Source: a phage. From it: a DNA stretch of 64,000 bases. Below are positions 32,148 to 48,392 of this stretch, one piece after another; position 1 is the stretch's first letter, and every line of letters starts with the position of its first letter. The notes beneath the pieces are model-generated. The model was given only the letters and a program-made list of their open reading frames with translations, searched no databases and was not told where the DNA came from. The DNA lies in the NCBI GenBank assembly GCA_014816185.1, contig GCA_014816185.1_4095.1, one strand, 5' to 3'. The position numbers and the translations under genes are program-made.

Positions 32148-32168
32148 TAGATACTACGGGGTAACATC

Positions 32169-32399: not shown

Positions 32400-32405
32400 G
32401 TACAT

Positions 32406-32431: not shown

Positions 32432-32632
32432 TTATAGTATCGTAGTACTGAGATACTTTGAAAATAGTTTTAAGAAAGTAGTTGACATTACCACAGAAAA
32501 GCGTAGAATGTATTACATCAAGACGGGGAGCACTAAGTAGACCGCCAGTAAGTCGAACGAAAAACTGGACACGTCGAGAAAACTTTGATACACTAATAAA
32601 CGTAAACTAAACTTTAATTGAGGATTTATAAA

Positions 32633-33115: not shown

Positions 33116-33136
33116 CAATTAAAGTACTGAATCACT

Positions 33137-33165
33137 AGCCCACTGTATAAGTGGGCTTTTTTGTG
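33137..33165 (+). terminator. intrinsic terminator
   Basis: AGCCCAC-tgtataa-GTGGGCT followed by TTTTTTGTG. Confidence 0.6.
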
Positions 33166-33389
33166 TTTATCGTTTACCAGGCCACCAGCACCGCCTAGAA
33201 TCGATTCTAACGCATTAAACTGATTATCTGATGCATTGCCCTAGCTGGTGGCGTTAAGGTCGTTAGAATGCGATTGAGAGCGTTTAAAGTATTTTGCAAA
33301 AAGTAATAAAAAGTACTTGCACGATTAAGAGATTAGCGTATAATTAATTACATCAAGGCGAGACACCTTAACTAACTGAGGATATAAAG

Positions 33390-33542
33390 ATGAATACTTA
33401 TGAACTGGATTGTTTTACTTTACAAGTAATGTCAGTATGCAGTAAGAAAGATTGGTCATCAAAGGAATTTAAAGCAGTTATCGCGTGTGCAAAACACGGC
33501 AAGACTATCAATGAAACGGCATCAATCATTGATAAACTTTAA
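33390..33542 (+). CDS. small protein (50 aa)
   Basis: MNTYELDCF..; below track threshold; preceded by promoter-like TTGCAC..TATAAT. Confidence 0.35.
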   Translation: MNTYELDCFTLQVMSVCSKKDWSSKEFKAVIACAKHGKTINETASIIDKL

Positions 33543-33550
33543 AAAATAGT

Positions 33551-33579
33551 TTGACAATAGTTTTAAGTACTGGCATAAT
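33551..33579 (+). promoter_or_regulatory. early-type promoter TTGACA-17-CATAAT
   Basis: TTGACA 33551-33556, CATAAT 33574-33579. Confidence 0.45.
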
Positions 33580-33611
33580 ACATACATCAACTACTGAATA
33601 GGAATTAAAAA

Positions 33612-33839
33612 ATGGCTATTATCATTACTCGCGTATCTGGTACTACTGGCAACGAACAAGTAGTTGCAGTCATTACCAACAAGGAAGGTGCGGAATTGCA
33701 AAATGCAATGAATACCTGGGCCGTTAATGAGTTCGGTCAGTGGGCAAGTGTAGCATACATTGAAACCTATCAAGTGCCGTCGATTAGTTTAACTGATTTG
33801 GGCGTTGAGCGTATCCTTTGCCTTGATGAATTAAATTAA
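33612..33839 (+). CDS. hypothetical protein
   Basis: 75 aa MAIIITRVSG. Confidence 0.5.
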   Translation: MAIIITRVSGTTGNEQVVAVITNKEGAELQNAMNTWAVNEFGQWASVAYIETYQVPSISLTDLGVERILCLDELN

Positions 33840-33924
33840 AAAAGTACTTGCAAAGTAAATCGAATAAAGTATAATACATTACATCAAGGGGAGAAATGGT
33901 TCTCCCCACTACAAGGAAACTAAA

Positions 33925-34068
33925 ATGAAAACTTGTCAATGTGGTCAGAAATCTATTACGGGTTTAAAGCGGGGCGTTGCACTTTGCCAGTACCATTATA
34001 ATTTACAAGTATGGGGTAAAGAATGGGCCGACCAGGTGGAAGCAGCAAAGAAAGAAAAAAGTAAGTAA
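33925..34068 (+). CDS. small Cys-containing protein (47 aa)
   Basis: MKTCQCGQKS..ALCQYHY; read from sequence. Confidence 0.35.
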   Translation: MKTCQCGQKSITGLKRGVALCQYHYNLQVWGKEWADQVEAAKKEKSK

Positions 34069-34087
34069 AAATATTATCACAGTACTA

Positions 34088-34116
34088 TTGACATAGTTTG
34101 ATAGTACTGGCATAAT
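34088..34116 (+). promoter_or_regulatory. early-type promoter TTGACA-17-CATAAT (copy 1 of 70-bp direct repeat)
   Basis: 34065-34135 nearly identical to 34359-34429, including the 3' codons of the preceding gene. Confidence 0.45.
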
Positions 34117-34149
34117 AGATTTTATCAAGACAACTAAGGGGAAACAATA

Positions 34150-34362
34150 ATGGCTATCATTACTAAAATCAAAGTTAACAAGACTATCGTTAAACTGGCA
34201 GAAGTGAAAGAAGGTTATAAAGTATCTTGGTGCGGTATGTATCGGACGTTCGCAGATATAGATGATGCAATCAATTACTACACTGACACGGTTAAAAACT
34301 TTGTTCGTGCTGATGTGGTTATGGCAGTGGCAACATATAAAGCAGCGAAAGAAAGTAAGTAA
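34150..34362 (+). CDS. hypothetical protein
   Basis: 70 aa MAIITKIKVNK. Confidence 0.5.
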   Translation: MAIITKIKVNKTIVKLAEVKEGYKVSWCGMYRTFADIDDAINYYTDTVKNFVRADVVMAVATYKAAKESK

Positions 34363-34381
34363 AAATATTATCACAGTACTA

Positions 34382-34410
34382 TTGACATAGTTTGATAGTA
34401 CTGGCATAAT
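34382..34410 (+). promoter_or_regulatory. early-type promoter TTGACA-17-CATAAT (copy 2 of direct repeat)
   Basis: TTGACA 34382-34387, CATAAT 34405-34410. Confidence 0.45.
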
Positions 34411-34453
34411 AGATTTTATCAAGACGACACATATTAATTTAAGGAATACTAAA

Positions 34454-34777
34454 ATGGCTAAAACTATCATCAACACCGTTTCCCTGGCTGCAATCCGTGC
34501 AATCAATGTTGACGGTAAACGTTGGTCTGATTCATATGGCAATACTTATCATTCTTGTCATGTAAGCGTTGAACTGGATAACGGTTTGAATGATCTGGCG
34601 GTTGAATCATTTACTTATGGCTATGAAGATGCATATCAACAAACGGCGTTTGATCTCTTAAAGGAATCAGTAGACGGGCTTGATACTATTGAAACCTCCC
34701 TTACTCGTTTATGTAATGATTTGTCTATCCCGTTGCATTGTACTGTACAGGATGTAAAACGTAAAAAAGATCTTTAA
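34454..34777 (+). CDS. hypothetical protein (paralog of 41311..41634)
   Basis: shares RW.DS.GNTYHSC.VS, FTYGY and C-term VKRKKD. Confidence 0.55.
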   Translation: MAKTIINTVSLAAIRAINVDGKRWSDSYGNTYHSCHVSVELDNGLNDLAVESFTYGYEDAYQQTAFDLLKESVDGLDTIETSLTRLCNDLSIPLHCTVQDVKRKKDL

Positions 34778-34857
34778 TTAGCTTTACTTTATGCAGATAC
34801 TTTGGTACAGTGTCTGCATAGGGGAAAGAAATTAAATTAACTTAAGAGGATCGTATA

Positions 34858-35127
34858 ATGAAAAATATCAGTACTTTAATCGACGCAGGTACACATGTTC
34901 GGCGGTCTATGGTTGCAACCAGTACTACAAAACAAGTAGCGAGCGGTTATCTTGTATTTGTGCACGATGGTAAACTCCTGGAACGTTCAATCAATTTTGA
35001 TGTTAAAAACAATTGCCGTTTTATTATCTTTAAGCGTGAACAATATAAAATCGATTTGCCAGCAAAGCCCATTAGCGGGGCGTACAACGTGCAATCATTG
35101 TTTGAGCGTCAACCTTACACCTATTAA
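34858..35127 (+). CDS. hypothetical protein
   Basis: 89-aa ORF. Confidence 0.45.
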   Translation: MKNISTLIDAGTHVRRSMVATSTTKQVASGYLVFVHDGKLLERSINFDVKNNCRFIIFKREQYKIDLPAKPISGAYNVQSLFERQPYTY

Positions 35128-35178
35128 TCAAAACATCGTTAGCGGTCGTTTTAGGCCGCTTATATTGGGGATTATACC

Positions 35179-35451
35179 ATGAACGTTAATCAAGTACTGA
35201 ATGAGATCGAAAGCATCATTAAACCGATGAAGCGTACTGATGCTATGTTAACACCGGAAGAATGCCGCCTTTATGAGCGTTACAGCGTCGAACAAGTCCA
35301 GGCAATGGCTATGGCTACCCCAGCCGTTAAACCGCCTGAGAATGCGTTACAGGACGTTACAGGGGATTATATCATCAATCCAGTACTAGGGAAGATGGCG
35401 GCAATCACCGAAGATCAACAAGACTACTTAAGCCAGTACTTAAAAGGTTAA
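35179..35451 (+). CDS. hypothetical protein
   Basis: 90-aa ORF. Confidence 0.45.
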   Translation: MNVNQVLNEIESIIKPMKRTDAMLTPEECRLYERYSVEQVQAMAMATPAVKPPENALQDVTGDYIINPVLGKMAAITEDQQDYLSQYLKG

Positions 35452-35456
35452 TTAAT

Positions 35457-35666
35457 ATGCTTACTGTACAGGATAAGATCGACATCTTAAAGGTTAATAT
35501 GTATGTGATTGATGCAGTACCTGGGAAAGTATTTGCATACGATGACACCACTGTAAGCGATTTCTACTATAGCCAGGACGTGGGGGATCTTTCTGTACAG
35601 TCGGTTATTGAAAACGTAGTTAATGCAGCGTATGAGCATTTACTTTCAAATAGTACTTGCAATTAG
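35457..35666 (+). CDS. hypothetical protein
   Basis: 69-aa ORF. Confidence 0.45.
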   Translation: MLTVQDKIDILKVNMYVIDAVPGKVFAYDDTTVSDFYYSQDVGDLSVQSVIENVVNAAYEHLLSNSTCN

Positions 35667-35735
35667 TTTTTAAACGCGTATAATGTTTTACATGAAGGGG
35701 AAAAATGATTCTCCCCACTAATTAAGGAATATGAA

Positions 35736-35882
35736 ATGAAAGCATCAAAAAAGAGTACTAACAAGAAAGCACGTTCAACCTTAGATGGGGTATTCCCTTT
35801 ACGTTTCGTTGATGAAGTGGTTTCCTACCCGCCTGGCCTTACTCCTGAGATGGTAGAAAGTTTGCGTAAATCTAAAAAATAG
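35736..35882 (+). CDS. small basic protein (48 aa)
   Basis: MKASKKSTNKKAR.. after PeSL stem-loop and AAGGA. Confidence 0.35.
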   Translation: MKASKKSTNKKARSTLDGVFPLRFVDEVVSYPPGLTPEMVESLRKSKK

Positions 35883-35963
35883 TACTTGCAATTAGTTTTT
35901 AGTACTGTATAATAGTTTACATGAAGGGGAGAAATGTTTCTCCCCAATAACAGGAGAAACAAA

Positions 35964-36116
35964 ATGAAACAATACAACGCTCGGTTTGATGTTACTATCG
36001 GTAACGGCAAAGGTCAATTCTCTTTCAGTACTCGCCGCAGTTATACAGAAAACTTCCTGCGTAATTGTGCACTGACCGCCGCACAAATTAAACATTACTT
36101 TCAGGCTAAAAAATGA
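35964..36116 (+). CDS. small protein (50 aa)
   Basis: start MKQYNARFDV at 35964 after PeSL and AGGAGA. Confidence 0.4.
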   Translation: MKQYNARFDVTIGNGKGQFSFSTRRSYTENFLRNCALTAAQIKHYFQAKK

Positions 36117-36202
36117 GATCATTAGCTTATTACAGTTCGGCCCTGGTCGGTGCATTGATCGCGGCGTTGTTAGTAACCTATCTATTCTTTATGGTGATTT
36201 AA
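36113..36202 (+). CDS. putative 29-aa hydrophobic peptide
   Basis: MRSLAYYSSALVGALIAALLVTYLFFMVI; ATGA overlap with upstream gene. Confidence 0.25.
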   Translation: MRSLAYYSSALVGALIAALLVTYLFFMVI

Positions 36203-36346
36203 ATGAATCCAACAGGTTTAAACTATAAAAGTTGTTCGGCGTTTACGAAAGCAAATAAAGCGAATGCACGTAAAGCGAAAGTACAGGAATACATCAAGCA
36301 AGGCATGACGCGAAAGGCGGCGATTCTAAAAGCTAAAAATAAATGA
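36203..36346 (+). CDS. putative small basic protein (47 aa)
   Basis: MNPTGLNYKS..; TAAATG junction. Confidence 0.25.
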   Translation: MNPTGLNYKSCSAFTKANKANARKAKVQEYIKQGMTRKAAILKAKNK

Positions 36347-36351
36347 AAAAA

Positions 36352-36445
36352 GTGGTTGACTCCGGTCAGCCATTTTGCTATTATATATTCATTGAGAGAT
36401 AGCTCACTAGCCCACAGGGTGCAGGAGTGTATCTATTGTATAATG
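36352..36445 (+). promoter_or_regulatory. composite element: UUCG-type hairpin/promoter + conserved CCCACAGGGTGCA segment
   Basis: related copies at 40379, 43645, 46399. Confidence 0.5.
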
Positions 36446-36488
36446 TTTGAGTACTGAAAACTATTTTAAAGTATTTGATAAAAAGTAC

Positions 36489-36548
36489 TTGCAAACTATC
36501 TCAATAGGCGTATAATGTTTTACATCGAAAGGGGAAACGGTTTCCCCT
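36489..36548 (+). promoter_or_regulatory. PeSL-like cassette
   Basis: TTGCAA 36489-36494, TATAAT 36511-36516, stem AGGGGAAA-cgg-TTTCCCCT. Confidence 0.55.
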
Positions 36549-36567
36549 GGTAATAAGGAAACAAATC

Positions 36568-36909
36568 ATGACTATTGCAATTGCTCAATCTAACTTTGAA
36601 AATGAAATCATCGCTCAGACACTGCGTTTAAGTGATGGTCGGGCCGAAATTAATTACGGTTTCAATTCAGGCGGTTGTGAAAAATATCAGTACTTTGTAA
36701 CGGCTGATGGCGGTGTCCTGGGTATCAATACAGTTATTGTAAACATCCAGAAAATTAATTTCAATGATCCAGACGATAGCCAGTTTTACATCACTGGCGT
36801 AGACGTGAACTATGAGGATGACTCACTAACTGATGACCACACTGGCGAGAAGTTAGAAAGTGCATACGGTGAAGATGATTATCAGTCCGGTCCAGAAGAT
36901 TTCGAATAA
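36568..36909 (+). CDS. hypothetical acidic protein
   Basis: 113-aa ORF. Confidence 0.5.
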   Translation: MTIAIAQSNFENEIIAQTLRLSDGRAEINYGFNSGGCEKYQYFVTADGGVLGINTVIVNIQKINFNDPDDSQFYITGVDVNYEDDSLTDDHTGEKLESAYGEDDYQSGPEDFE

Positions 36910-37004
36910 TATAAAAAAAATAGTTTGACAATAGATTATAGTACTGTATAATAGTTTACATCAAGGGGAGAAAAACTTCTCCCCACTAACAGAGAGAAAA
37001 CAAA

Positions 37005-37217
37005 ATGGCTAATATCCGGTCGAAATTAAAAAATGCAAAACAAGTTTTATTTTCAGATCATGAATACTTTAATAAAGATATTACAGGAGTTACAAGTATC
37101 AAGGAAGTAAAAGAAAAAACCGGCGTTTTGTGTGATGTGCGATTAGTTGGAACATTTGGGAATAACGTGCTATATCGCTGTGGTGATTACAATTTTACAC
37201 TGACTATCATTAACTAA
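37005..37217 (+). CDS. hypothetical protein
   Basis: 70-aa ORF. Confidence 0.45.
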   Translation: MANIRSKLKNAKQVLFSDHEYFNKDITGVTSIKEVKEKTGVLCDVRLVGTFGNNVLYRCGDYNFTLTIIN

Positions 37218-37310
37218 AAATATTATCACAGTACTATCAAAGCTATTGACAATGATTGATAGTACTGGCATAATAAGTTTTATCAACTACACTACTAAGG
37301 AATTAAAAAA

Positions 37311-37490
37311 ATGGCTATCATCGCAAAAACTGAAATCGTTGGTCTGGATTCTATCATCATGACGTTTGAAGATCAAAAAGGTATGTATGTAGTTTCCTAT
37401 GGTGATTATGTTCGGGAGTATGAAACGGTAGACGAAGCCTTTGAAAGTTACATTCGCCAGGTGAATAAAGCATACGACGATTACCGCTAA
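37311..37490 (+). CDS. small protein (59 aa), MAII-type
   Basis: MAIIAKTEIVG..; N-terminus like 33612 and 34150. Confidence 0.4.
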   Translation: MAIIAKTEIVGLDSIIMTFEDQKGMYVVSYGDYVREYETVDEAFESYIRQVNKAYDDYR

Positions 37491-37589
37491 AATATATTAC
37501 CAGTACTATTAAATATATTGACAACGTTTGATAGTACTGTATAATAAGTTTTATAAACAGTAGTTAACTTAACCTAAGAGAGAAACAAA

Positions 37590-37733
37590 ATGATCGCACT
37601 GGATTCATTCATCGACGCAGTACTGGCAAAAACTGGCGAGGATCTGACCGCAGAACAATACGCAATGATCGAGCAATGCCAGCAAGACGGTAAATCGGTG
37701 AAAGATACTGTTAAGATTATCCGCAAGATGTAA
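37590..37733 (+). CDS. small protein (47 aa)
   Basis: MIALDSFIDAVLAK.. after AGAGAGA RBS. Confidence 0.35.
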   Translation: MIALDSFIDAVLAKTGEDLTAEQYAMIEQCQQDGKSVKDTVKIIRKM

Positions 37734-37832
37734 GATTATAGCCCACTGGTTAACGCTGGTGGGCTTTAATTCATTACCCTATACAATGCCAGTACTAAAC
37801 CGTTTATCTCGTTAGAATGCGTTACAGGACGT

Positions 37833-38036
37833 TTGACAATGATTAGCATGAAATCAGTACAAAAACAAATAGAAACATTATCAAAAATTAAACGTAAACA
37901 GTACTCGTTAGAATATACAATCAATGGTAACTATCATCTAATGAAAGAGAATAATTTCATTGTCATTGATGAATCATTGCAAGTTATTAGTATAGTACTG
38001 AAAGCATTAATCAATGACAGAAAAAAATTAAAATAA
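37833..38036 (+). CDS. hypothetical protein
   Basis: 67-aa ORF. Confidence 0.4.
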   Translation: MTMISMKSVQKQIETLSKIKRKQYSLEYTINGNYHLMKENNFIVIDESLQVISIVLKALINDRKKLK

Positions 38037-38365
38037 TCTATTGACAATATCCTCCAGTACTGGCATAATACTTACATCAAGACGAGAACGTCACTAACCC
38101 ATAGGGTGCACAAATGTAACTATATAATATCGATCAATAAATGATCAAAAAAGTACTGGATTAATTTAGCATAAGGCGTATAATTCTGATCAATTCTTGA
38201 TCAAAGGCAATATACGCAGTTGAATTTATATAGACAGTACAAAGGCGTTACTATCCGTGGTAATGCTGATGGATATGTAGTATCATATGGTTTGAATAAG
38301 ATAAACACTAGTAGTATTATTGTAGCATTACAGTACTATAGTATTTTTATAATGAGGTTAAAATA

Positions 38366-38623
38366 ATGGCAGTAGGATACGCGAAAGACGGGGCCGAACA
38401 AGACGAGATTCACGCAGTGATTCAGGCCGCCGTTAACCACGCTAGAAAGCAAATTAACGCACAAAGAGAATCACTAGTACATTGCCTCGACTGCGGCGAT
38501 AAAATCCCTGAGAATCGACGCCAGGCCGTTATAGGGTGCATGTATTGTATTACTTGCCAGGAGGATCATGATAGTACTTTTAAAAGAGATCCGCGTAATT
38601 GTTGGCATAGATCTATGAGATAA
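38366..38623 (+). CDS. TraR/DksA-family C4 zinc-finger protein
   Basis: HCLDCGDKIPENRRQAVIGCMYCITCQ fits the C-x2-C ... I-P ... R ... C-x2-C DksA/TraR signature. Confidence 0.55.
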   Translation: MAVGYAKDGAEQDEIHAVIQAAVNHARKQINAQRESLVHCLDCGDKIPENRRQAVIGCMYCITCQEDHDSTFKRDPRNCWHRSMR

Positions 38624-38687
38624 AAAGTAATTGACAGTACTGAAAGATAGTGTATAATGTTTTATATCTTAACTGAGGATAGTAATC

Positions 38688-39044
38688 ATGGGAATACAAC
38701 ATATCACGCGTACTACTGACAATGGCGAGATCACTGGCTATCAAGTACAGGGCAAAGTAGCACAATTGCAGTACTGGTTTGTTAAACGTGGAATCATTGC
38801 ACCGGATCTTGATTATGACCGTGTAGCGTTTATTGATTCTCTTTATGTTGATCCTGATAGTCGGGGCAATGGTGAAGGTAACGAATTAATGAATGCCTTT
38901 ATCGATGCCGCCGATGATTCAGATTGTATCATCTTAGAATGCGATACGGGAGAAGATAACGCCTTTAATCTTAAAGAATGGTACGAAGGATTCGGATTCG
39001 AGGTACTGATCGATAGTGAATATCCTATCATGATTTTATCATAG
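38688..39044 (+). CDS. possible small GNAT-like acetyltransferase
   Basis: LYVDPDSRGNGEGNELMNAFIDAA resembles GNAT motif A (R-x-x-G-x-G); 118 aa. Confidence 0.35.
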   Translation: MGIQHITRTTDNGEITGYQVQGKVAQLQYWFVKRGIIAPDLDYDRVAFIDSLYVDPDSRGNGEGNELMNAFIDAADDSDCIILECDTGEDNAFNLKEWYEGFGFEVLIDSEYPIMILS

Positions 39045-39116
39045 TACTTGCAATTAGTTTTCAGTACTGTTATAGTACTTACATCAAGGGGAAACGTCTT
39101 CCCCTACTAAGAGGAA

Positions 39117-39311
39117 ATGAAAATGGAAAACTTATCAAGTATTTTAGTACAAGATGATTTCGGTAATCCTGGAAGTGCTATCATAGTTCGGGGCAATAAA
39201 GCAACGTTTGTTATTGCTGGTGGACCCGTACAGCGTAGCATTAAAAATAATGCTGTTACCATTAATAATGTACGCTATCGCTTAGATAAAGAATTGATTC
39301 ATAAACTGTAA
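39117..39311 (+). CDS. hypothetical protein
   Basis: 64-aa ORF. Confidence 0.45.
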   Translation: MKMENLSSILVQDDFGNPGSAIIVRGNKATFVIAGGPVQRSIKNNAVTINNVRYRLDKELIHKL

Positions 39312-39338
39312 TATTAATTTAATAGAGGATAACAATAA

Positions 39339-39662
39339 ATGTACATTCATACTACTATCACAAAGGAAGTCCGTTGCCAGTTCGAAAGTATTCCGGGCGT
39401 ATGTTTCATCACTGGTACGTTTTCCCCTGGTGATCGTGATAATCCAGTACTGTTACAGTTACGCCATCCATTATGGGATAAAGCATTTGATCTGCCGTTG
39501 AATGAATTCGCAACTACTGCTGAAAAGTACATTAAAAATATTCGCGAGAATGATCGACTATTCATTAATGCTTTTAGTGATGTCGCGTTAAGTGAGATCC
39601 ATGCTGTATTGGTTGCAATCATGGAATCAATGGAGAAAACTAAATTCAAACAAGGTGAATAA
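39339..39662 (+). CDS. hypothetical protein
   Basis: 107-aa ORF. Confidence 0.5.
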   Translation: MYIHTTITKEVRCQFESIPGVCFITGTFSPGDRDNPVLLQLRHPLWDKAFDLPLNEFATTAEKYIKNIRENDRLFINAFSDVALSEIHAVLVAIMESMEKTKFKQGE

Positions 39663-39745
39663 AAACTATTGACAAGATAATCTAGTACTGTATAATAGTT
39701 TACATGAAGGGGAGAAATGATTCTCCCCACTAAGAGGAAAGAAAA

Positions 39746-39958
39746 ATGCAAGGTCAACTAATCGTTCGTAAATGGTCTGATACTAACGAAAAACCGTGGG
39801 ATGTACAATACATCGCCCCAAATGGTGAATCCAGATATCAACCAGGTGTAACGCATAGTACTGAGCAATTCGCTGCCGCCCATCGTGAACGTCTGTTACA
39901 GTCAATGCAGCAAGGTTCCGGCGAAAAATTCATTCAGGATCATTGGCTGAAAGATTAA
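39746..39958 (+). CDS. hypothetical protein
   Basis: 70-aa ORF. Confidence 0.45.
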   Translation: MQGQLIVRKWSDTNEKPWDVQYIAPNGESRYQPGVTHSTEQFAAAHRERLLQSMQQGSGEKFIQDHWLKD

Positions 39959-40044
39959 AAAGTACTTGCACAGTACTGAATAAAGTGTATAATGTTTTAT
40001 ATCGAGAGGGGAATAGTTCCCCTCCTAACAAAAAGGAAAGTATA

Positions 40045-40218
40045 ATGATCCAAGTAGAATTATCAGTACTGAAAGATCTGTTTTATCGGTTAGGTACTAA
40101 TGGCGAGTATCCTAAAAGTGATACCGCAAAACTTTTTGTATCACTCGACTTATGGCAACGCGAACAATTAGTAATGTCCTGGCGTAAAGGTAAAGCAGAT
40201 CGCGAGGTGAAAGCATGA
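40045..40218 (+). CDS. small protein (57 aa)
   Basis: start MIQVELSVLKD at 40045 after PeSL and AAGGAAAG. Confidence 0.4.
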   Translation: MIQVELSVLKDLFYRLGTNGEYPKSDTAKLFVSLDLWQREQLVMSWRKGKADREVKA

Positions 40219-40364
40219 AAGAATTCTTATTCGAAGTAGTGTTTCAAGGTGTCGGTAGTAACCAACTGATTCGCTCAAGTGGTTACAATGTTAGCCAGGC
40301 ATGGAATAACATTAAACAAATGTACCCGAACGCCATCACCTATCGCAACCCGAAAGAAGTTTAA
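40215..40364 (+). CDS. small protein (49 aa)
   Basis: MKEFLFEVVFQGVG..; ATGA overlap. Confidence 0.35.
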   Translation: MKEFLFEVVFQGVGSNQLIRSSGYNVSQAWNNIKQMYPNAITYRNPKEV

Positions 40365-40378
40365 AAATAATTGAAAAA

Positions 40379-40465
40379 GGGATTGACTCCGGTCAGTCCC
40401 TTTGCTATTATATACGCATAGAAACAAATCAGCCCACAGGGTGCATAAATGTATCTATTATATGC
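40379..40465 (+). promoter_or_regulatory. composite element: UUCG hairpin / TTGACT-17-TATTAT promoter + conserved segment
   Basis: GGGATTGAC-TCCG-GTCAGTCCC; TTGACT 40383-40388, TATTAT 40406-40411. Confidence 0.5.
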
Positions 40466-40537
40466 TGGTGGCTAGTACTGAAAACTATTTTTAAAAAAGT
40501 ACTTGCATTGTACTTAGAATCAAGTATAATGTTTTAC

Positions 40538-40614
40538 ATCAGGACGGGGAACGAAACAAGTAACCCCGTTAAGTAGTCCAGGAGTAAGACATAAGAAAAC
40601 CTCCCCTGATAAAA
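40538..40614 (+). ncRNA. candidate small structured RNA / structured leader (copy 2)
   Basis: ~85% identical to 29066-29155; flanked by promoters (TATAAT 40525-40530 upstream; TTGACA 40619-40624 / TATAAT 40641-40646 downstream). Confidence 0.35.
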
Positions 40615-40678
40615 TAGTTTGACAATAGAAAGTAAAAGAGTATAATACTTACATCAACCACTGATAAGGAAACATAAA

Positions 40679-40954
40679 ATGCGGATTCTACTGACAGCTA
40701 ACGAAATCGAGCAAGTACTGACTACTAACCTGGAAGACTGGAAACGTGAAGCAGATATCCAGGCGGTTCAACAGCTTAACGATGAGTTAACGCCGGATGA
40801 CTTAAGCAAGATTGTAGATCCTCAATTCTACGAAGATATCCACGACACCGCGTTAAGCGTCGAGGATGTACTAGATAAGCACTACATTGATATTGATTTG
40901 CAGGTGTACGGTCGTAAAAACTTTATCACTATTCACGACATTTACAACAATTAA
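40679..40954 (+). CDS. hypothetical protein
   Basis: 91-aa acidic ORF. Confidence 0.5.
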   Translation: MRILLTANEIEQVLTTNLEDWKREADIQAVQQLNDELTPDDLSKIVDPQFYEDIHDTALSVEDVLDKHYIDIDLQVYGRKNFITIHDIYNN

Positions 40955-41039
40955 GTATTGACAAAGTATCTTAGTACTGTATAATAGTTTACATCGAGAG
41001 GGGAATGGTTCCCCTCCTAACTAAAAGAGAGAAATAAAA

Positions 41040-41222
41040 ATGGCTAAGTGCACTATCTGTAATAAAGAAATAGTATTAGTTCCAAGTGCCCGTGAACGTG
41101 CCGCTCGGTTCGGTGGCAAAGCGTCAGACTATACAAAAATGTTTACTGCCCATACAGCTTGCCAGGTAGCAAAACGTTCACAAGAAAGCGTAGAATTAAT
41201 GCGTAAACTTTCCAAAAAATAA
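41040..41222 (+). CDS. small Cys-containing protein
   Basis: MAKCTICNKEIV..TACQ; 60 aa. Confidence 0.45.
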   Translation: MAKCTICNKEIVLVPSARERAARFGGKASDYTKMFTAHTACQVAKRSQESVELMRKLSKK

Positions 41223-41310
41223 GTATTGACAAAGTATCTTAGTACTGTATAATAGTTTACATCAAGTGAGGGGAAACGGTTCCCCTCCTAACAAAGAGAG
41301 AGAAATAAAA

Positions 41311-41634
41311 ATGGCTATGATCCTTGCCCAGAAAGTAGAACTGAAAATTGTAACCTCCTTTGACATTAAAGTTAATCGGTGGACTGATTCACACGGCAAT
41401 ACTTACCACTCTTGCTACGTGTCTGCGTTAATTGGTGATCGTTGGGAAGACCTGGGACATGAAACCTTTACATACGGTTACGGCACACAAGGAGAATACA
41501 CGGGCTTGGAGATCATTAAAGAAACCGTTATAGGTTTCAACCCGAAAGAAAACGTTATTCACCGCATCGAGGAAGAGATCAACAAAGAAATAACAGTTCG
41601 ATACTACGATGTAAAACGTAAGAAAGATATGTAA
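41311..41634 (+). CDS. hypothetical protein (paralog of 34454..34777)
   Basis: start MAMILAQK; shared NTYHSC motif. Confidence 0.55.
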   Translation: MAMILAQKVELKIVTSFDIKVNRWTDSHGNTYHSCYVSALIGDRWEDLGHETFTYGYGTQGEYTGLEIIKETVIGFNPKENVIHRIEEEINKEITVRYYDVKRKKDM

Positions 41635-41729
41635 TAGAATCCATTTAAAGTACTATTTGACATTGCCCAGATAGTACTTTATAATAGACTCTAACTTGTA
41701 GTACTAACTTAACTAATAGGATGTATACC

Positions 41730-42125
41730 ATGATTACTAAATTCTACGCTACCCGTGAAGCTGCCCGTATTGTTGCACGCGAGGAAGGAGCAGCATTTAA
41801 AGACATGGGCAAAGATGCACCGAAAGGCCAACGCTGGGCCGTACAGTTCAAAGAAATCTCTGATATTGTGAATTCACCGGAGCCAGTACTAACAGCATCA
41901 GAACTAAAACGAGCGGATTTACTGGCGGCAGTACTTAACGCACAAGATGAATTTATCGCTGATTCTGATATCAAAGTACAGACAAACCATACCGCTTGGA
42001 CTCACGCGGATCACCTGGCAAACCTTAAGCGTCCAAGTGAACTGGTTCGCAACCAGAAAGAGATCCGACACGACCGTAAGGGTAATCGTGTAACAGTATA
42101 CAGTAAACGCCGCCAGGTTATCTAA
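41730..42125 (+). CDS. hypothetical protein (paralog of 28205..28471)
   Basis: start MITKFYATRE 9 nt after AGGA. Confidence 0.55.
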   Translation: MITKFYATREAARIVAREEGAAFKDMGKDAPKGQRWAVQFKEISDIVNSPEPVLTASELKRADLLAAVLNAQDEFIADSDIKVQTNHTAWTHADHLANLKRPSELVRNQKEIRHDRKGNRVTVYSKRRQVI

Positions 42126-42147
42126 TAACTTGCAGTACTAACAACAC

Positions 42148-42172
42148 GGCGGGATCAGTTCCCGCCTTTTTT
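42148..42172 (+). terminator. intrinsic terminator
   Basis: GGCGGGA-tcagt-TCCCGCC followed by TTTTTT. Confidence 0.55.
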
Positions 42173-42187
42173 ATAGGATAAACTAAA

Positions 42188-42442
42188 ATGATTAAGGTAC
42201 AACTATCTAAAGATAATATCTTGCGGGTACACTATAAAGCACCACAGAGAATCATCACAAAGGCCGTACAGCTTGCTAATGAGTTTATTAATGGTAACCT
42301 ATTACCAAGGAAGTTAAGCAACGGAAAACTGCGTGTAATCGATGTAGACACTAACAACAGAATAGTAATTGAGAACACAGGAAAGATAAACCTATATGAA
42401 CACCAACAATATAATAAGAAAATAAAACTAATATCACGTTGA
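42188..42442 (+). CDS. hypothetical protein
   Basis: 84-aa ORF. Confidence 0.45.
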   Translation: MIKVQLSKDNILRVHYKAPQRIITKAVQLANEFINGNLLPRKLSNGKLRVIDVDTNNRIVIENTGKINLYEHQQYNKKIKLISR

Positions 42443-42495
42443 CAGTACTCAATTGTTTTAGTATTATGTACACATACCAACACGGGAGAAACAAA

Positions 42496-42714
42496 ATGAA
42501 ATTATCTAAAATCGAAAAGAAAACTATTGATGAAGCAGTTAAGCACGGTTATACCTTTCGTAATGATTCACATTTTACCAATTTTCAACAAGGCCAAAGG
42601 ACTATTAAAAAACTAATTGACAAAGGTTTATTAGTTAAAGTAGATAACGGTAACGGCATTGAGTATCAGCCAACCCAAGACGCATTATCTTTAAAGAAAT
42701 ATGCAATTATCTAA
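42496..42714 (+). CDS. hypothetical protein
   Basis: start MKLSKIEKK; upstream promoter region duplicated before next gene. Confidence 0.45.
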   Translation: MKLSKIEKKTIDEAVKHGYTFRNDSHFTNFQQGQRTIKKLIDKGLLVKVDNGNGIEYQPTQDALSLKKYAII

Positions 42715-42771
42715 TTGACAGTACTCAAATGTTTTAGTACTATATGTACATACCAACACGGGGAAAACAAA

Positions 42772-43014
42772 ATGATTACTTTAGAAAAACGTATCAAAGA
42801 AACTACATCGCTGGTGGAACTGTTAACAGTACTGAAATGCCGTACTACTCGGTTTAGTACACCGGACTTTATTAATATGGTTGATGTTAACGGTCGTTAT
42901 CGCATTGCAGTAGAACATGGAACAGCGAAAGTATTCAGTACTAAAAACACTAAGGAAGTGATTCACGCGGTTAGTGTGAAAAAAGTGGTTGCCATTGATA
43001 GTAAAGTACTGTAA
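42772..43014 (+). CDS. hypothetical protein
   Basis: start MITLEKRIKE; same upstream promoter repeat as previous gene. Confidence 0.45.
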   Translation: MITLEKRIKETTSLVELLTVLKCRTTRFSTPDFINMVDVNGRYRIAVEHGTAKVFSTKNTKEVIHAVSVKKVVAIDSKVL

Positions 43015-43045
43015 GATAGTTTCATTAACTCAAGGAGAACATGCA

Positions 43046-43630
43046 ATGCGTAATTATACTAAATTCATCCGTACCCTGTCAGAAATGGAAACCAACAAAG
43101 AGATCCTTTCAGCTTGTCGGTTAGCTGGTCTGGAGATCATCGGTGCGGGTTCTTCCCGTATTGTATTCGCTTTAAATGTTCGGTTAGTGATTAAGGTCGC
43201 CAATTGTGATGCGGGTGTAGAACAAAATGAAACTGAATGTAAGGTATGGAATTTTTTAGACTATGACCGCCCTCAATTGAAACAGTACTTTGCAAAGGTG
43301 CATATGCATTTATGCGATCCTGATAATATGTTTATCGTTATGGATCGGTTGAGTACTGCAAGTAAAGGCAGTGTGAAGCACGTTAACGCGTGCAACGAAT
43401 TAAAGTACAATATTAAACGTAATGCCATTGAACGCCAGCACCGCTTTGCTGATGCACTACAACACGTCGATGATACATTATCAACACTAACGATAAGAGA
43501 TATCAGAAAACAGAATATCGGCCAGGATCGTAATGGACTTATTAAAGTACTTGATTACGGTTTAACCCGCAATATCTGGAATCAGTACTATAAAAAGCGT
43601 GATGTGGCAGCAAGTAAAGTAACACGATAA
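43046..43630 (+). CDS. minimal eukaryotic-like protein kinase (ePK-fold) candidate
   Basis: Gly-loop IIGAGSSRIVF, beta3 Lys in LVIKV, catalytic loop IRDIRKQN (RD..N spacing as in HRDLKPxN), IKVLDYG matching the DFG region; only ~195 aa so C-lobe truncated. Confidence 0.5.
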   Translation: MRNYTKFIRTLSEMETNKEILSACRLAGLEIIGAGSSRIVFALNVRLVIKVANCDAGVEQNETECKVWNFLDYDRPQLKQYFAKVHMHLCDPDNMFIVMDRLSTASKGSVKHVNACNELKYNIKRNAIERQHRFADALQHVDDTLSTLTIRDIRKQNIGQDRNGLIKVLDYGLTRNIWNQYYKKRDVAASKVTR

Positions 43631-43644
43631 AAAAGATTAAAAAA

Positions 43645-43735
43645 GGGATTGATTTCGGTCAGTCCCTTTGCTATTATATATTCATTGAGAGATAGCTCAC
43701 TGACCCACAGGGTGCATAAATGTATCTATTATATA
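43645..43735 (+). promoter_or_regulatory. composite element: UUCG hairpin/promoter + conserved segment
   Basis: GGGATTGAT-TTCG-GTCAGTCCC; downstream ATTCATTGAGAGATAGCTCACTGACCCACAGGGTGCA. Confidence 0.5.
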
Positions 43736-43852
43736 AGTATTCAGTACTGAAAACTATTTTTAAAAAGTACTTGCATTGTACTTAGAATCAAGTATAATGT
43801 TTTATATCGAGAGGGGGGGGAACGGTTCTCCCTGGCAATAAGGAATAAAATC

Positions 43853-44074
43853 ATGACTACAATGACTTGCATTTACGCTTCCAATCTTCTGAATGATGCG
43901 GCCTTTAATGTTGATTCAGAATATCAATGTTATCGGGATGAAAATAAAAAAGTTTTTGTAGTTGATAATAATGGTTTCCATATTGAATTACAATCCGGCT
44001 TCACTGGTGTTGATGGTAAATCAGTATGGGGCGTACAGGATGATAACGGTACATATCATTTTAAACGTAATTAA
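43853..44074 (+). CDS. hypothetical protein
   Basis: 73-aa ORF. Confidence 0.45.
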   Translation: MTTMTCIYASNLLNDAAFNVDSEYQCYRDENKKVFVVDNNGFHIELQSGFTGVDGKSVWGVQDDNGTYHFKRN

Positions 44075-44157
44075 GTATTGACAAAGTATATTAGTACTGT
44101 ATAATAGTTTACATCAAGGGGAGAACTATTCTCCCCGATACTAAAAGGAATAAAATC

Positions 44158-44565
44158 ATGACTACTACTAATCAAGCTCGGTCCATCGCCAACGATAAAA
44201 ATCATGCTGCAATGGTCGCTGGTTACATTGAAGCTATGCAATTCAGTACTGTACACAATGAGAACGGCGATTACCTGGAAGATTATGAATTATCAGAGCA
44301 AGCCCATCAAGCGGCAGTGATTGCATGTTCACGTTTCCTTGCTGTACATGGTGAAGATATGGAAACAGTACAAAAACACCATAATCCTGATTATACTTAT
44401 AGTCATGCAGGTCATGATCTATTTCTTACTCGCGAAGGTCACGGCACTGGTTTTTGGGATCGTGATATCGGTCACTATGATGATATATTCACTAAGTACT
44501 GCGAAGAAATCAACGTTTGCGATCCCTATGTAGGCGATGATAATTTAATCTATATGGGCGAATAA
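44158..44565 (+). CDS. hypothetical protein
   Basis: 135 aa; motif HAGHDLFLTREGHGTGFWDRD. Confidence 0.5.
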   Translation: MTTTNQARSIANDKNHAAMVAGYIEAMQFSTVHNENGDYLEDYELSEQAHQAAVIACSRFLAVHGEDMETVQKHHNPDYTYSHAGHDLFLTREGHGTGFWDRDIGHYDDIFTKYCEEINVCDPYVGDDNLIYMGE

Positions 44566-44652
44566 AAGTATTTGACAAAGCATATCAGTACTGTATAATA
44601 GTTTACATCAAGGGGAGAATAGTTCTCCCCGATACTAAAAGGAAACAAAATT

Positions 44653-44925
44653 ATGTCTAGCTACTCCGCTACTATGATCATTAAAGATATGAACGGTAAT
44701 CCTACTTCTGCTGGTGGATCATTTGGAAACATTAACTTAGATGGTCGGTTATCAATTGAATCAGCCATCAATGCAGCGAAAGAAGTTTTTAAGAATGAAT
44801 GTACTGTTAGTAAGCTGGATTATATGGGATTCGCTATCGAGAAAACTAATCGTTTTGTGAACTACAAAAATCCACTGATGATTGATACTAACCTGAAAGC
44901 TAACGAAGTGGAATACTTATTATGA
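44653..44925 (+). CDS. hypothetical protein
   Basis: 90-aa ORF. Confidence 0.45.
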   Translation: MSSYSATMIIKDMNGNPTSAGGSFGNINLDGRLSIESAINAAKEVFKNECTVSKLDYMGFAIEKTNRFVNYKNPLMIDTNLKANEVEYLL

Positions 44926-45113
44926 CAGTTGAAGAAGTTAAAAAAGTACTGGCAGTACTACGCTATCATAACCATTGCAAGGTTAAGAATGATCCTGATT
45001 ATGTTGATTCATCCCTGGAGGAAGACACATTAAACGCAATAAGCCATATGCAAACATTAGCAAAGCGTATGACCGAAAAGAATAGACCGGACTATATCGG
45101 AAATAAAATTTAA
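44922..45113 (+). CDS. hypothetical protein
   Basis: 63 aa; ATGA coupling. Confidence 0.4.
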   Translation: MTVEEVKKVLAVLRYHNHCKVKNDPDYVDSSLEEDTLNAISHMQTLAKRMTEKNRPDYIGNKI

Positions 45114-45199
45114 AAAGTACTTGCATTGTAGTTAGATTAACGTATAATGTTTTACATAGAGCGGGGGAATAGTTCTCCCGCCAGTCCGGGAGATACACC

Positions 45200-45463
45200 A
45201 TGAACACTATCGAAATCACTATCAATGCACACGTATACGACAACGTAGTACTGCAAACTACTATGACCGCTAATGATACCAGTACTTTGCGGAATACCGT
45301 TGTAAGTGCTGTATGTGCTGCAATCGGTGATGTAGCCCTGGAAAATGCAAAACACGTAAACGATGGTTTCACTATGTGCAAACGTGATAACGCAAAACAT
45401 ATCATCGTAGAAGGTTACGGCGGTGTAGAATTTAATGTTTATTTGAAAAAAGTACTTGCATAA
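45200..45463 (+). CDS. hypothetical protein
   Basis: 87-aa ORF. Confidence 0.45.
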   Translation: MNTIEITINAHVYDNVVLQTTMTANDTSTLRNTVVSAVCAAIGDVALENAKHVNDGFTMCKRDNAKHIIVEGYGGVEFNVYLKKVLA

Positions 45464-45530
45464 TAACTAAAACAAAGTATAATGTTTTGCATAGGGGGAG
45501 ATATCCTCCCCCACTAAAAGGAGTACTAAA

Positions 45531-45755
45531 ATGGCTAACTTTGATGAACTGATGCGGGAAGTAGCTAACCTGGCAGAAGAGAAGAAATCATTCGATTCTA
45601 TCTATAACACCGCTCACCGTGATTCAGTACTGTCATGTACTCAGGATCAAAAAGATGAACTAATCGCCACATATCATGAAGCATGGAAGTACTACCGCCA
45701 ATGGGAGAAAGAAGAAAGTGAGTCTATCATTGACGGCCTCAATAATCTAATCTAA
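45531..45755 (+). CDS. hypothetical protein
   Basis: 74-aa ORF. Confidence 0.45.
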   Translation: MANFDELMREVANLAEEKKSFDSIYNTAHRDSVLSCTQDQKDELIATYHEAWKYYRQWEKEESESIIDGLNNLI

Positions 45756-45830
45756 AGTTTTATTTCAGTACTATTGACATAGCTTGATAGTACTGATGTA
45801 ATAACTTTACTAACTACAAGGGGAAACATA

Positions 45831-46088
45831 ATGGAACAGTTCACACAATATCGGGTAAATCCTCAAGCTATGGCCTACGTAGAAGACCATAAAACGTTAC
45901 CAGTACTGCAACCAGTTAAAGGCCATATCTATCGTGCAATGTCGTGGAGTACGGCCCAGGATGGCTATAAAACCGTAGCTGTCGGTATGTACTGCGGTAA
46001 TGGTGAATGGTTTGATCCAAATAATCCGGTCGCCGTTGACAGTACTGAAAAAATGAAATGGGCCGACTACATCGAAGATATTTCATAA
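45831..46088 (+). CDS. hypothetical protein
   Basis: 85-aa ORF. Confidence 0.45.
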   Translation: MEQFTQYRVNPQAMAYVEDHKTLPVLQPVKGHIYRAMSWSTAQDGYKTVAVGMYCGNGEWFDPNNPVAVDSTEKMKWADYIEDIS

Positions 46089-46178
46089 AAACTATTTGAC
46101 AGTACTAACCAGTAATGTATAATGTTTTACATCGAGCGGGGGAATAGTTCTCCCGTCAATAGTTTGGAGTAAAACATT

Positions 46179-46379
46179 ATGTCTATCGCTATCGCCCTGG
46201 TCGAAGTACTGAAAGAAGCTAAAGCCAACCTTATCGATGTACAGATTAAGGAATTGCAAAACGGCTTAATCGGCTGTACTTGTACCGCTGGTGGAGCGGC
46301 AGACTATCGGGAATTCGAATCACTTGAATCGATGGTCCGGTATCTTACAATCATCGTAGAAGATTGGAGAATCATCTAA
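46179..46379 (+). CDS. hypothetical protein
   Basis: 66-aa ORF. Confidence 0.45.
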   Translation: MSIAIALVEVLKEAKANLIDVQIKELQNGLIGCTCTAGGAADYREFESLESMVRYLTIIVEDWRII

Positions 46380-46398
46380 CAAAAAAGAATAAAAAAAA

Positions 46399-46480
46399 GG
46401 GATTGACTCCGGTCAGTCCCTTTGCTATTATATACGCATAGACAAAAACTAGCCCACAGGGTGCATAAGTGTATCCAAAA
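46399..46480 (+). promoter_or_regulatory. composite element: UUCG hairpin/promoter + conserved segment
   Basis: GGGATTGAC-TCCG-GTCAGTCCC; CCCACAGGGTGCATAAGTGTATC downstream. Confidence 0.5.
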
Positions 46481-46646
46481 TATATAGTTAATAACGGTGA
46501 GTAACTATCTGCTGGTGGATGTACTGCCAGTACTCAAGGGAACTAAAACTATTAATAAAAAGTATTGACAAAGTATATCAGTACTGCAATAATGTATCTC
46601 GTAGGGCGGCAATGGTGCGACGGTCCACAAAGTTAGGAGATTCAAA

Positions 46647-46979
46647 ATGAGTACTTCAATCGCTATCGTTAAAGCTTTCATCCGTACCAATGTTTCATCT
46701 GTATTCATCGACGGTCTGGATCGGGAAGTAGAATACTCAATCATTATCGCACAGACTGCAAACGGTGCTCGGTATATCCTTAATGATAGTGAAGCAAATC
46801 ACTACTACTTCACTAAAGCTACTGGCTTTAAACGCATCGATGCTGACGTAGTATACGCTAAGATGAATAAGCTGGTAGACAAGATTAACGCGAAAGGTAC
46901 TATCGATTTACAGTACTGGACCGAAACCGATCCAGAATATGGTTCTCACCGCTATCTGAATCCAGGTATTAAAATGTAA
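46647..46979 (+). CDS. hypothetical protein
   Basis: 110-aa ORF. Confidence 0.5.
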   Translation: MSTSIAIVKAFIRTNVSSVFIDGLDREVEYSIIIAQTANGARYILNDSEANHYYFTKATGFKRIDADVVYAKMNKLVDKINAKGTIDLQYWTETDPEYGSHRYLNPGIKM

Positions 46980-47068
46980 AAAGTACTTGCATAGTACTTA
47001 GAATCAAGTATAATGTTTTACATAGAGAGGGGGAAATGGTTCTCCCTCCTAAATTAAGGAGTTTTATC

Positions 47069-47470
47069 ATGACCTTCTCAATCAATTCCTTCGCTGACGT
47101 TTTAGTACTGGCTCGGACTTTTGGTAAAGATGCACTGGAGTACGCTGTAAGTAATGGTACTATCCAACCGGAACAGTGCCGCATCATTGGAAACTGCAAA
47201 CGTTGGGCGGTATCCAATACTATTGCACTGGAAAACTTCCACGATGGCAACAATGAATATTCTGTTGATGTAGTATTCGAAGCCGTTGATCTCGGCGGTA
47301 TCTATAATACTAACCTGAATGATGTGCGTATCGTTCGCACGGGGTTCGGTGCTTATGATGTATCTATCCGTGAAGCTATGGACAACGGATACATTAGCAA
47401 GGACTTACTTGCTCACATCATGCAGCTGTGTACGGAACGTAACGAAGCACGCACTATCTTAGGACTGTAA
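47069..47470 (+). CDS. hypothetical protein
   Basis: start MTFSINSF at 47069. Confidence 0.5.
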   Translation: MTFSINSFADVLVLARTFGKDALEYAVSNGTIQPEQCRIIGNCKRWAVSNTIALENFHDGNNEYSVDVVFEAVDLGGIYNTNLNDVRIVRTGFGAYDVSIREAMDNGYISKDLLAHIMQLCTERNEARTILGL

Positions 47471-48195: not shown

Positions 48196-48392
48196 AAATG
48201 CGTATTTTAAATAAAGAAGAATATCAATCACTGTTACGTAAAAACTTCACAAAGATTTATAATACAGACACACACGTAGAACGAATGGAGTTATACCTTT
48301 TGATTACTTTGGGAACTAACTATCAGGAAAGATGGGTGATTCAATATATGGATACATTGAAAAATAAAATATTGTCCACGAGGAAACAATGA
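48192..48392 (+). CDS. GTNYQE-family small protein
   Basis: LGTNYQERWV; ATGA overlap. Confidence 0.55.
   Translation: MKMRILNKEEYQSLLRKNFTKIYNTDTHVERMELYLLITLGTNYQERWVIQYMDTLKNKILSTRKQ

Follow-up and report, generated by a model that had tools for sequence, protein, structure and literature searches.

What does a phage keep between two complete host-type promoters when the interval holds no gene? The question is raised by positions 40538-40614 (ATCAGGACGGGGAACGAAACAAGTAACCCCGTTAAGTAGTCCAGGAGTAAGACATAAGAAAACCTCCCCTGATAAAA) of a 64,000-nt stretch of phage DNA, contig GCA_014816185.1_4095.1 of assembly GCA_014816185.1 (hereafter the window, to which coordinates refer unless another genome is named). 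The window is ~98% identical to Escherichia phage vB_Eco_slurp01 and to other jumbo phages of the 121Q/PBECO4/G17 type, genus Asteriusvirus. A sequence-only reading had proposed that the interval is the second copy of a candidate small RNA. We found that it almost certainly belongs to an RNA domain, conserved and structured, that the sense strand encodes at the very 5' end of transcripts started by host RNA polymerase from strong sigma-70 early promoters, and that the window has three copies of this domain. The element is probably functional, and it accounts for the puzzling "empty" promoter-to-promoter intervals in the terminal-repeat regions of jumbo phages. Judged by its covariation, it is a real structured leader RNA of a large unannotated family that includes phage T7.

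Copies of the element in the window

The second copy is present where it had been placed, and 40538-40614 aligns with 29073-29150 (copy 1). The block common to the two copies is longer than had been claimed: it extends over ~29010-29205 and 40475-40670, with a mean column identity of 87%, and takes in both flanking promoters. The promoter hexamers named earlier on either side of copy 2 were found, the downstream pair matching the consensus at 12 of 12 positions, and the genes that follow the two copies are different, as had been stated (start codons at 29216 and 40679, products of 203 and 91 aa). Copies 1 and 2 scored 104 and 100 bits in the covariance model (E ~1e-27 and 1e-26; the E-values of these short-calibrated models are rough, and the bit scores are large), and their resemblance is therefore not due to chance. 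Where two copies had been implied, an unfiltered covariance model of 18 variants located a third one at 32522-32579 (23 bits, E 4e-4).

The minimum-free-energy fold of copies 1 and 2 is the same three-way junction (z-score -2.7 for copy 2 and -2.0 to -2.1 for copy 1). It consists of a closing helix, AUCAGG/CCUGAU, formed by the first six transcribed bases, of hairpin A (ACGGGG...CCCCGU), of an 11-nt linker UAAGUAGYCCA, and of hairpin B (GGAG(U)...(A)CUCC) with a loop of 14-16 nt. The core consensus reads UAAGUAG(A/U)C, followed by a hairpin with the loop UAAG-N-C-NN-ACGAAAA, where copy 2 has AAG in place of the ACG of the other copies. RNA of the minus strand folded no better than shuffled sequences, and the substitutions that yield G.U pairs fit RNA of the plus strand only, as the minus strand would have A-C mismatches in their place.

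The sequence-only reading had noted substitutions in the paired arms and had reasoned that, if these disrupted pairing without compensation, the element would be a decaying repeat. The arm difference that it quoted is real (aacttcccgtt in copy 1, aaccccgtt in copy 2) and shortens the stem from 7 bp, one of them a G.U pair, to 6 bp, with pairing retained. No double compensatory change was found among the ~8 differences between copies 1 and 2: CTTCCC versus CCCC keeps hairpin A paired, hairpin B loses its terminal U-A pair with the A-to-C change at 40600, and the others lie in loops or in the linker. We then aligned 18 distinct variants from jumbo phages and Justusliebigvirus. The proposed structure was 95.9% paired in this alignment, which shows almost no variation and contains a single compensatory pair, found in hairpin B of a paralogue in phage EJP2 (A-U to U-A), and five changes to G.U. 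On the window copies and their near relatives alone, the question of compensation would stay open. The decisive set also comprised copy 3, the EJP2 paralogues, other jumbo phages and T7-like phages.

A shared fold in T7-like and jumbo phages

The same motif lies at nt ~536-596 of T7 (NC_001604), between the host promoters A1 (498) and A2 (626), and reads ACCGGGGTCAACCGGA TAAGTAGACAG CCTG ATAAGTCGCACGAAAAA CAGG TA TTGACA, where the last TTGACA is the -35 hexamer of A2. Model R2, which covers the linker and hairpin B, found exactly the three copies in the window (29106-29142, 53.3 bits; 40569-40605, 50.9 bits; 32533-32569, 56.1 bits), one copy in T7 nt 1-1300 (57.8 bits) and four in EJP2, all of them at 45-58 bits.

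Among 27 distinct sequences, the covariation score of hairpin B was 0.50, compared with 0.17 +/- 0.03 in shuffled controls, which keep phylogenetic relatedness in, and the number of double-change cells was 27, compared with 11 +/- 2.2; neither value was reached in any of 500 shuffles. Both sides change at four of the six pairs, and pairing falls to 35-44% when the register is slid. The stems include GGAG/CUCC, GGUG/CACC, CCAG/CUGG, CCUG/CAGG and CUUG/CAAG. Hairpin A is not constrained in sequence: of 36 distinct upstream sequences, 81% (15% of shuffles) have a stem of 4 bp or more whose 3' end is 0-1 nt from UAAGUAG, with at least 12 versions of the arm pairs.

In T7-like phages, the loop of hairpin A pairs with bases that start 2 nt past hairpin B, forming a pseudoknot, of which the versions GUCAA/UUGAC, GAUUAG/CUAAUC, GUCGGU/ACCGAC and GUCAUC/GAUGAC were observed. 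In the T7-like set (16 sequences), 10 of 15 pairs change on both sides, compared with 2.6 +/- 1.3 after shuffling (0 of 500 shuffles reach this number), and the pseudoknot helix is compensated at five of its six pairs. Although shuffling leaves relatedness in place, the several independent multi-base compensations in the pseudoknot are hard to explain otherwise. In the jumbo copies, loop A and the tail were no more complementary than shuffled sequences are; the partner of their tail is the 5' end, which makes the jumbo form a topological variant. Its closing helix is AUCAGG/CCUGAU in copies 1 and 2 and AUCAAG/UUUGAU in copy 3, and CGGC/GCCG and GCGGC/GUCGC can be read off the sequences of Salmonella phage 7t3 and of a further locus (L060), respectively. 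The general fold comprises a hairpin A free of sequence constraint, a single-stranded linker UAAGUAG(A/U)C, a hairpin B with a covarying stem of 4-5 bp, and a 3' tail that folds back, in T7-like phages to the loop of hairpin A and in jumbo phages to the transcript's 5' end, which becomes buried in a three-way junction.

Hairpin A, hairpin B and the closing interaction thus all covary across the family, and the decaying repeat envisaged earlier is not borne out. The fuller version of that alternative, in which a cassette of promoter, hairpin and Shine-Dalgarno (SD) sequence lost its open reading frame (ORF) and recombination left tandem promoters behind, is contradicted by the same family-wide covariation, and we regard it as scarcely credible. 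It draws on the parallel between the first ~50 nt of the element and the cassette common in this region (promoter, ACATC, G/C hairpin, AGGAG), and on an AUG at the right distance from SD-like bases in one EJP2 paralogue, where the other copies have ACG or AAG. Yet 45 jumbo and Justusliebigvirus records have retained the element, and more than 500 T7-like phages, which have no SD-like sequence at the site, have retained its core; insertions and deletions disrupt any reading frame, and a promoter is retained even where it was swapped for a different one.

The proximity of the next promoter, which follows within 2-40 nt in most contexts, and the identity of the T7-like pseudoknot strand UUGAC with the -35 hexamer of A2 might instead suggest a role at the DNA level, in which the element activates or spaces the next promoter (A2 in T7, P2 in the window) or provides a protein site for it. 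We consider this very improbable: the compensatory changes and the G.U pairs point to selection on RNA pairing of one strand, the conserved A-tract is separated from the next -35 hexamer by anything from ~7 to more than 40 nt, and neither copy 3 nor a locus from another genome (L036) has a consensus promoter after the motif.

BLAST searches detected the full jumbo-type element in 45 phage records, belonging to Asteriusvirus and to ~145-kb phages of the Justusliebigvirus type. Asteriusvirus genomes have two copies each, or four where the terminal repeat was assembled twice, and EJP2 had three in this search; phages muut, outra, EmilieFrey, A73, W70, A7_1 and A5-4 of the Justusliebigvirus type have one copy each. 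With copy 3 as the query, BLAST found further jumbo phages, namely Erwinia phage Hallingskeid, Salmonella phages 7t3, Munch and SE_PL and Klebsiella phage fENko-Kae01, and also T7-like Yersinia phages. A pattern scan of IMG/VR returned 32 loci, mostly on T7-like contigs of 38-40 kb, and a looser pattern (ATCAGGACGGGG...CCTGATAA) gave three GC-rich chance matches there. The T7-type consensus matched 502 phage records, almost all T7-like and with one copy each, from Escherichia, Klebsiella, Salmonella, Yersinia, Enterobacter, Shigella, Citrobacter, Serratia and Pectobacterium hosts. T7 is among the best-studied phages, yet nearly all of the T7-like GenBank records listed carry no annotation at the motif, including its covariation-supported pseudoknot between A1 and A2. 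We came across no account of the motif in Rfam 15 or in the literature open to searching, from which older subscription papers on T7 were missing. The jumbo and T7-type sequences gave no BLAST match in 5,426 E. coli genomes, and among 185,579 bacterial species genomes the only match was a T7-like fragment inside a metagenome-assembled genome.

In every genome examined, all copies lie on the gene-sense strand downstream of a sigma-70 promoter, and the jumbo version starts at about +1. The spacers of P1, the P2 promoters and the downstream genes vary among phages, and the conserved block spans the transcription start to CCUGAU. Phage muut (1501-1700) and the window (40538-40720) have the element, P2 and the start of the 91-aa gene in common, with unrelated upstream promoters, which indicates a recent horizontal transfer between phage genera.

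Some of these results count against the structural interpretation. Covariation among the 18 near-identical jumbo and Justusliebigvirus variants was not above that of shuffles, copy 3 is without hairpin A and does not fold better than a shuffled sequence, and the similarity between genera is at least partly due to recent horizontal transfer.

Other identities of the element were also considered. At gathering thresholds, no Rfam 15 model matched anywhere in the window, and at E up to 10 only chance-level matches (E of at least 1) were obtained around copy 2 and in T7 nt 480-930; the models without a match include hammerhead, pistol, twister, riboswitches and CRISPR repeats. The nested hairpins, the pseudoknot and the conserved junction and loop bases are typical of self-cleaving ribozymes and of ligand-sensing aptamers, either of which could serve leader processing or metabolite sensing. 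In view of the Rfam result even at the permissive cutoff, and of the lack of an expression platform (neither a terminator nor a sequestered gene start site), such a role is improbable. The sequence CUGAUAA resembles the hammerhead core, but lacks its essential G, which we counted against a ribozyme.

ARAGORN found neither tRNA nor tmRNA in the window. The sole ORF across the element begins inside the -10 hexamer, and its frame is disrupted by the 2-nt insertion or deletion between copies 1 and 2 and by an additional C in muut. In the divergent EJP2 paralogue (~7773-7870 of that genome), the AUG lies in loop B (GUAUGAAAAACACCCCUGAUAAAAG...), 8 nt past the SD-like AGGUG, and opens a 12-codon ORF; as a coding feature of the family, this mini-ORF was rejected because it is not conserved. 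A likeness to 16S rRNA (nt 856-912) was tested against rrnH and gave alignment scores within the range of shuffles. Hairpin A, the linker and the 5' arm of hairpin B of the T7 type match CCGGAGCUAACGCGUUAAGUCGACCGCCUG (E. coli rrsH 16S, nt 856-885) at 23 of 30 positions, a borderline result that was taken as chance, as 9 of 200 shuffles reached the same score and rrnH received no more than 11 bits from the motif model.

Transcripts and possible function

The upstream unit is ended by a terminator-like hairpin, and P1 of copy 2 therefore starts a new transcript (Table 1); copies 2 and 3 both come after terminators. We infer that transcription of copy 2 starts at A40538, 7 nt past the -10 hexamer, because this spacing and the ATC start match T7 A1 (start annotated at nt 498); the element would thus begin at +1. 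In none of the copies was a terminator found between the element and the next gene, nor does a U-tract follow in any variant, and P1 transcripts should therefore read through P2 into the gene. P2 of copy 2 is predicted to drive the downstream gene without the element, which would give two mRNA forms per downstream gene, one bearing the domain (from P1) and one without it (from P2). Copy 3 is the leader of the gene that starts at ATG 32633 (160 aa, PHROG 27871), with no clear second promoter after it.

Table 1. Features at the three copies of the element (coordinates of the window)
Feature	Position	Strand	Details
Terminator-like intrinsic hairpin before copy 2	40376-40403	+	Closes upstream unit (ORF 40215-40364); same site annotated as terminator in phage G17
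P1, copy 2	40491-40530	+	A-rich upstream tract; -35 TTGCAT 40503-40508; 16-nt spacer; -10 TATAAT 40525-40530
Element, copy 2	40538-40610	+	Core 40569-40605
Closing helix, copy 2	40538-40543 with 40605-40610	+	ATCAGG with CCTGAT
Hairpin A, copy 2	40544-40549 with 40564-40569	+	ACGGGG with CCCCGT
Linker, copy 2	40570-40580	+	TAAGTAGTCCA
Hairpin B, copy 2	40581-40584 with 40601-40604	+	GGAG with CTCC; loop 40585-40600
P2, copy 2	40619-40646	+	TTGACA 40619-40624; 16-nt spacer; TATAAT 40641-40646
Gene after copy 2	40679-40954	+	Early; PHROG 14947; function unassigned
P1, copy 1	29038-29065	+	-35 TTGCAA; -10 TATAAT
Element, copy 1	29073-29147	+
Closing helix, copy 1	29073-29078 with 29142-29147	+
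Hairpin A, copy 1	29079-29085 with 29100-29106	+	ACGGGGA/UUCCCGU
Linker, copy 1	29107-29117	+
Hairpin B, copy 1	29118-29122 with 29137-29141	+
P2, copy 1	29156-29183	+	12/12 consensus
Gene after copy 1	29216-29827	+	PHROG 5162; function unassigned
Promoter, copy 3	32482-32509	+	TTGACA 32482-32487; TAGAAT 32504-32509; directly after terminator AGCCCACCTGGTGGGCTTTTTT
Element, copy 3	32517-32589	+	Reduced variant, hairpin A missing; promoter-proximal start ATCAAGACGGGG, as in the other copies; ATCAAG 32517-32522 with TTTGAT 32584-32589
Linker, copy 3			TAAGTAGACCG (contains TAAGTAG)
Hairpin B, copy 3			CCAGT/ACTGG (GGAGU/ACUCC in the other copies); loop AAGTCGAACGAAAA

Part of the small-RNA proposal has held: the element is real, repeated, non-coding and structured, and it lies on the plus strand between promoters. 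Its standing as an independent small-RNA gene has not, since it has a promoter of its own (P1, 40503-40530) but neither a terminator of its own nor a defined 3' end, and copy 3 and the T7 copy are part of longer leaders. Because no terminator follows it, we favour a 5' leader domain over a bounded small RNA.

We propose, tentatively, that this leader domain acts in cis, binding a host component and protecting the early transcripts. It would fold upon transcription, and its invariant unpaired bases would bind a component found throughout the Enterobacteriaceae, either RNA polymerase or a factor of elongation, termination or RNA decay. Acting on its own transcript or polymerase, it would shield the untranslated start of the early transcript from premature termination or decay; in T7, 427 nt precede gene 0.3. 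The conservation pattern points to a host factor that early phage transcripts must engage: virulent phages of Enterobacteriaceae that are not related to one another have preserved the unpaired bases, and the bacterial genome collections searched did not yield the motif. Identification of this factor would bear on how early expression by the host polymerase is protected and, in T7, on genome entry.

Some support for a cis role comes from boxA sequences. In T7, boxA (CGCTCTTTAACAA) lies further along the same leader, and in one T7-like IMG/VR contig (L049) it lies ~20 nt past hairpin B. The A3 leader of T7 (nt 780-824) contains a hairpin, GGUC-UAACGAAACCU-GACC, whose loop is like loop B and which ends 5 nt before boxA. 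These boxA neighbours in the T7 A3 leader and in L049 may tie the motif to Nus-type antitermination.

Other observations weigh against protection in cis. P2 lies directly downstream and makes transcripts without the domain, and almost every gene of the region has its own promoter. The boxA matches in the window are at chance level, with none near the three copies. On HK022 24000-34000, where the put antiterminator sites are unannotated and were assumed to lie, unfiltered R2 gave at most 6.2 bits, in a one-directional comparison, as R2 was built from the present motif and not from put.

The same architecture could also be explained by action in trans. P1 and the element would then constitute an RNA gene whose processed 5' domain accumulates early as a small RNA or protein decoy; released by RNase III at R0.3 in T7, or by another nuclease in jumbo phages, it would titrate a host RNA-binding protein or defence sensor. 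The element does occupy a gene slot, without an ORF, between two complete promoters (copies 1 and 2, Justusliebigvirus), is present in 2-4 copies per jumbo genome, has unpaired bases conserved in unrelated phages that have only their hosts in common, and has a base-paired 5' end that should stabilise the RNA. RNase III releases leader fragments upstream of R0.3 in T7, which was counted in favour of such a decoy. Nevertheless we consider a decoy rather unlikely, because its 3' end has neither a terminator nor a known processing site, the element sits inside a longer leader in copy 3 and in T7, a search of the window for complements of the linker and of loop B returned only the copies themselves, and no similarity to host RNAs was found.

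Taken together with the distribution described above, the leader domain could represent a previously unrecognised class of phage RNA, a suggestion that we make with reserve: a compact domain with a pseudoknot or three-way junction, carried on the first transcripts of the host polymerase, that would bind a conserved enterobacterial factor in host takeover. Such a class would be common to T7-like podophages, Justusliebigvirus and several lineages of jumbo myophages, as a mobile cassette flanked by promoters, and the candidate factors would be RNA polymerase, Rho or Nus, the decay machinery, or a defence sensor. Recombination at the flanking consensus promoters would move the domain between genomes as a cassette.

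More than 20 early-promoter cassettes lie at 27300-47100 (e.g. 39944-40042, 43749-43819 and 46965-47035), each in the order AAAGTACTTGCA-N16-TATAAT, GTTTTAC, ATCGAG, G/C hairpin, SD, ATG, and P1 of copy 2 was assigned to the window's family of at least 20 AAAGTACTTGCA-N16-TATAAT promoters. The cassette promoter and its first transcribed bases (ATCGAGAGGG) are close to T7 promoter A1, which suggests that coliphages share an exchangeable early-expression module. Copies 1 and 2 have a second block in common further upstream, AGCCCAYAGGGTGC...TGTATCTAT (28872-28899 and 40431-40458); AGCCCACCTGGTGGGCTTTTTT, upstream of copy 3 (32407-32430), is a clean terminator related to them, and the blocks may be degenerate terminators. 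Just 5' of the early-gene block, at 26439-26598, an array with a periodicity of 8/16/24 nt (units such as AGATGGCTAAACGTCT) was observed, which lies ~21 kb from the genome end by a rough transfer of G17 coordinates and may be the inner boundary of the direct terminal repeat. Families of direct repeats with a period of ~1.2 kb occupy 8600-20550, with conserved ends ...GGTAACAT..CCTCC on the plus strand (SD and ATG on the minus strand), and look like a tandem array of paralogous minus-strand genes. At 48300-53500, ~12 repeats lie ~210-230 bp apart and have the motifs TAGGAACAAACTATCA and AAATGCAAATGA in common; they look like a tandem family of very small paralogous genes.

Relation to known systems

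The PeSL elements of T4-type phages combine a strong sigma-70 early promoter with a G/C stem-loop and flank small orphan genes, whose modular shuffling they mediate (Arbiol et al. 2010, PMC2839356; Comeau et al. 2014, PMC4122927). In these modules the stem-loop terminates upstream transcription, and an SD sequence and a start codon form the end (PMC2839356, PMC4122927). The element of the window is likewise exchanged between genomes at flanking promoter consensus sequences. However, its structure lies 3' of the promoter, is far more elaborate, has conserved loops and contains no ORF: the SD-like AGGAG has no start codon after it, and the ATG that comes next is part of the P2 unit.

The closest known relative is the A1-A2 interval of T7, which has the core UAAGUAGAC followed by a hairpin with the loop (A)UAAGUC-NN-ACGAAAAA. 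As in copies 1 and 2, the linker is directly preceded by a hairpin there, and the strand and the position after a strong host-type early promoter, usually with another promoter next, are the same. The T7 motif differs in that it starts at ~+39, after a separate 5' hairpin, while the element of the window starts at +1, and in that T7-like phages have one copy per genome and the phage of the window has three.

The putL and putR sites of HK022 encode cis-acting antiterminator RNAs of ~70 nt with two stem-loops, located just after the early promoters. A genome has more than one of them, and they work on the host RNA polymerase without the help of a phage protein. In anatomy and placement, the element of the window appears to resemble put; the stems of put are nearly contiguous, whereas the element has a conserved linker of 9-12 nt and a closing or pseudoknot helix. 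With lambda nut and the rrn leader it has in common a promoter-proximal leader hairpin with an A-rich loop, but this loop has 14-16 nt and is not a boxB pentaloop, and a protein like N is not implied. Identification of the host factor would add a protein-independent RNA tool to the nut/put paradigm.

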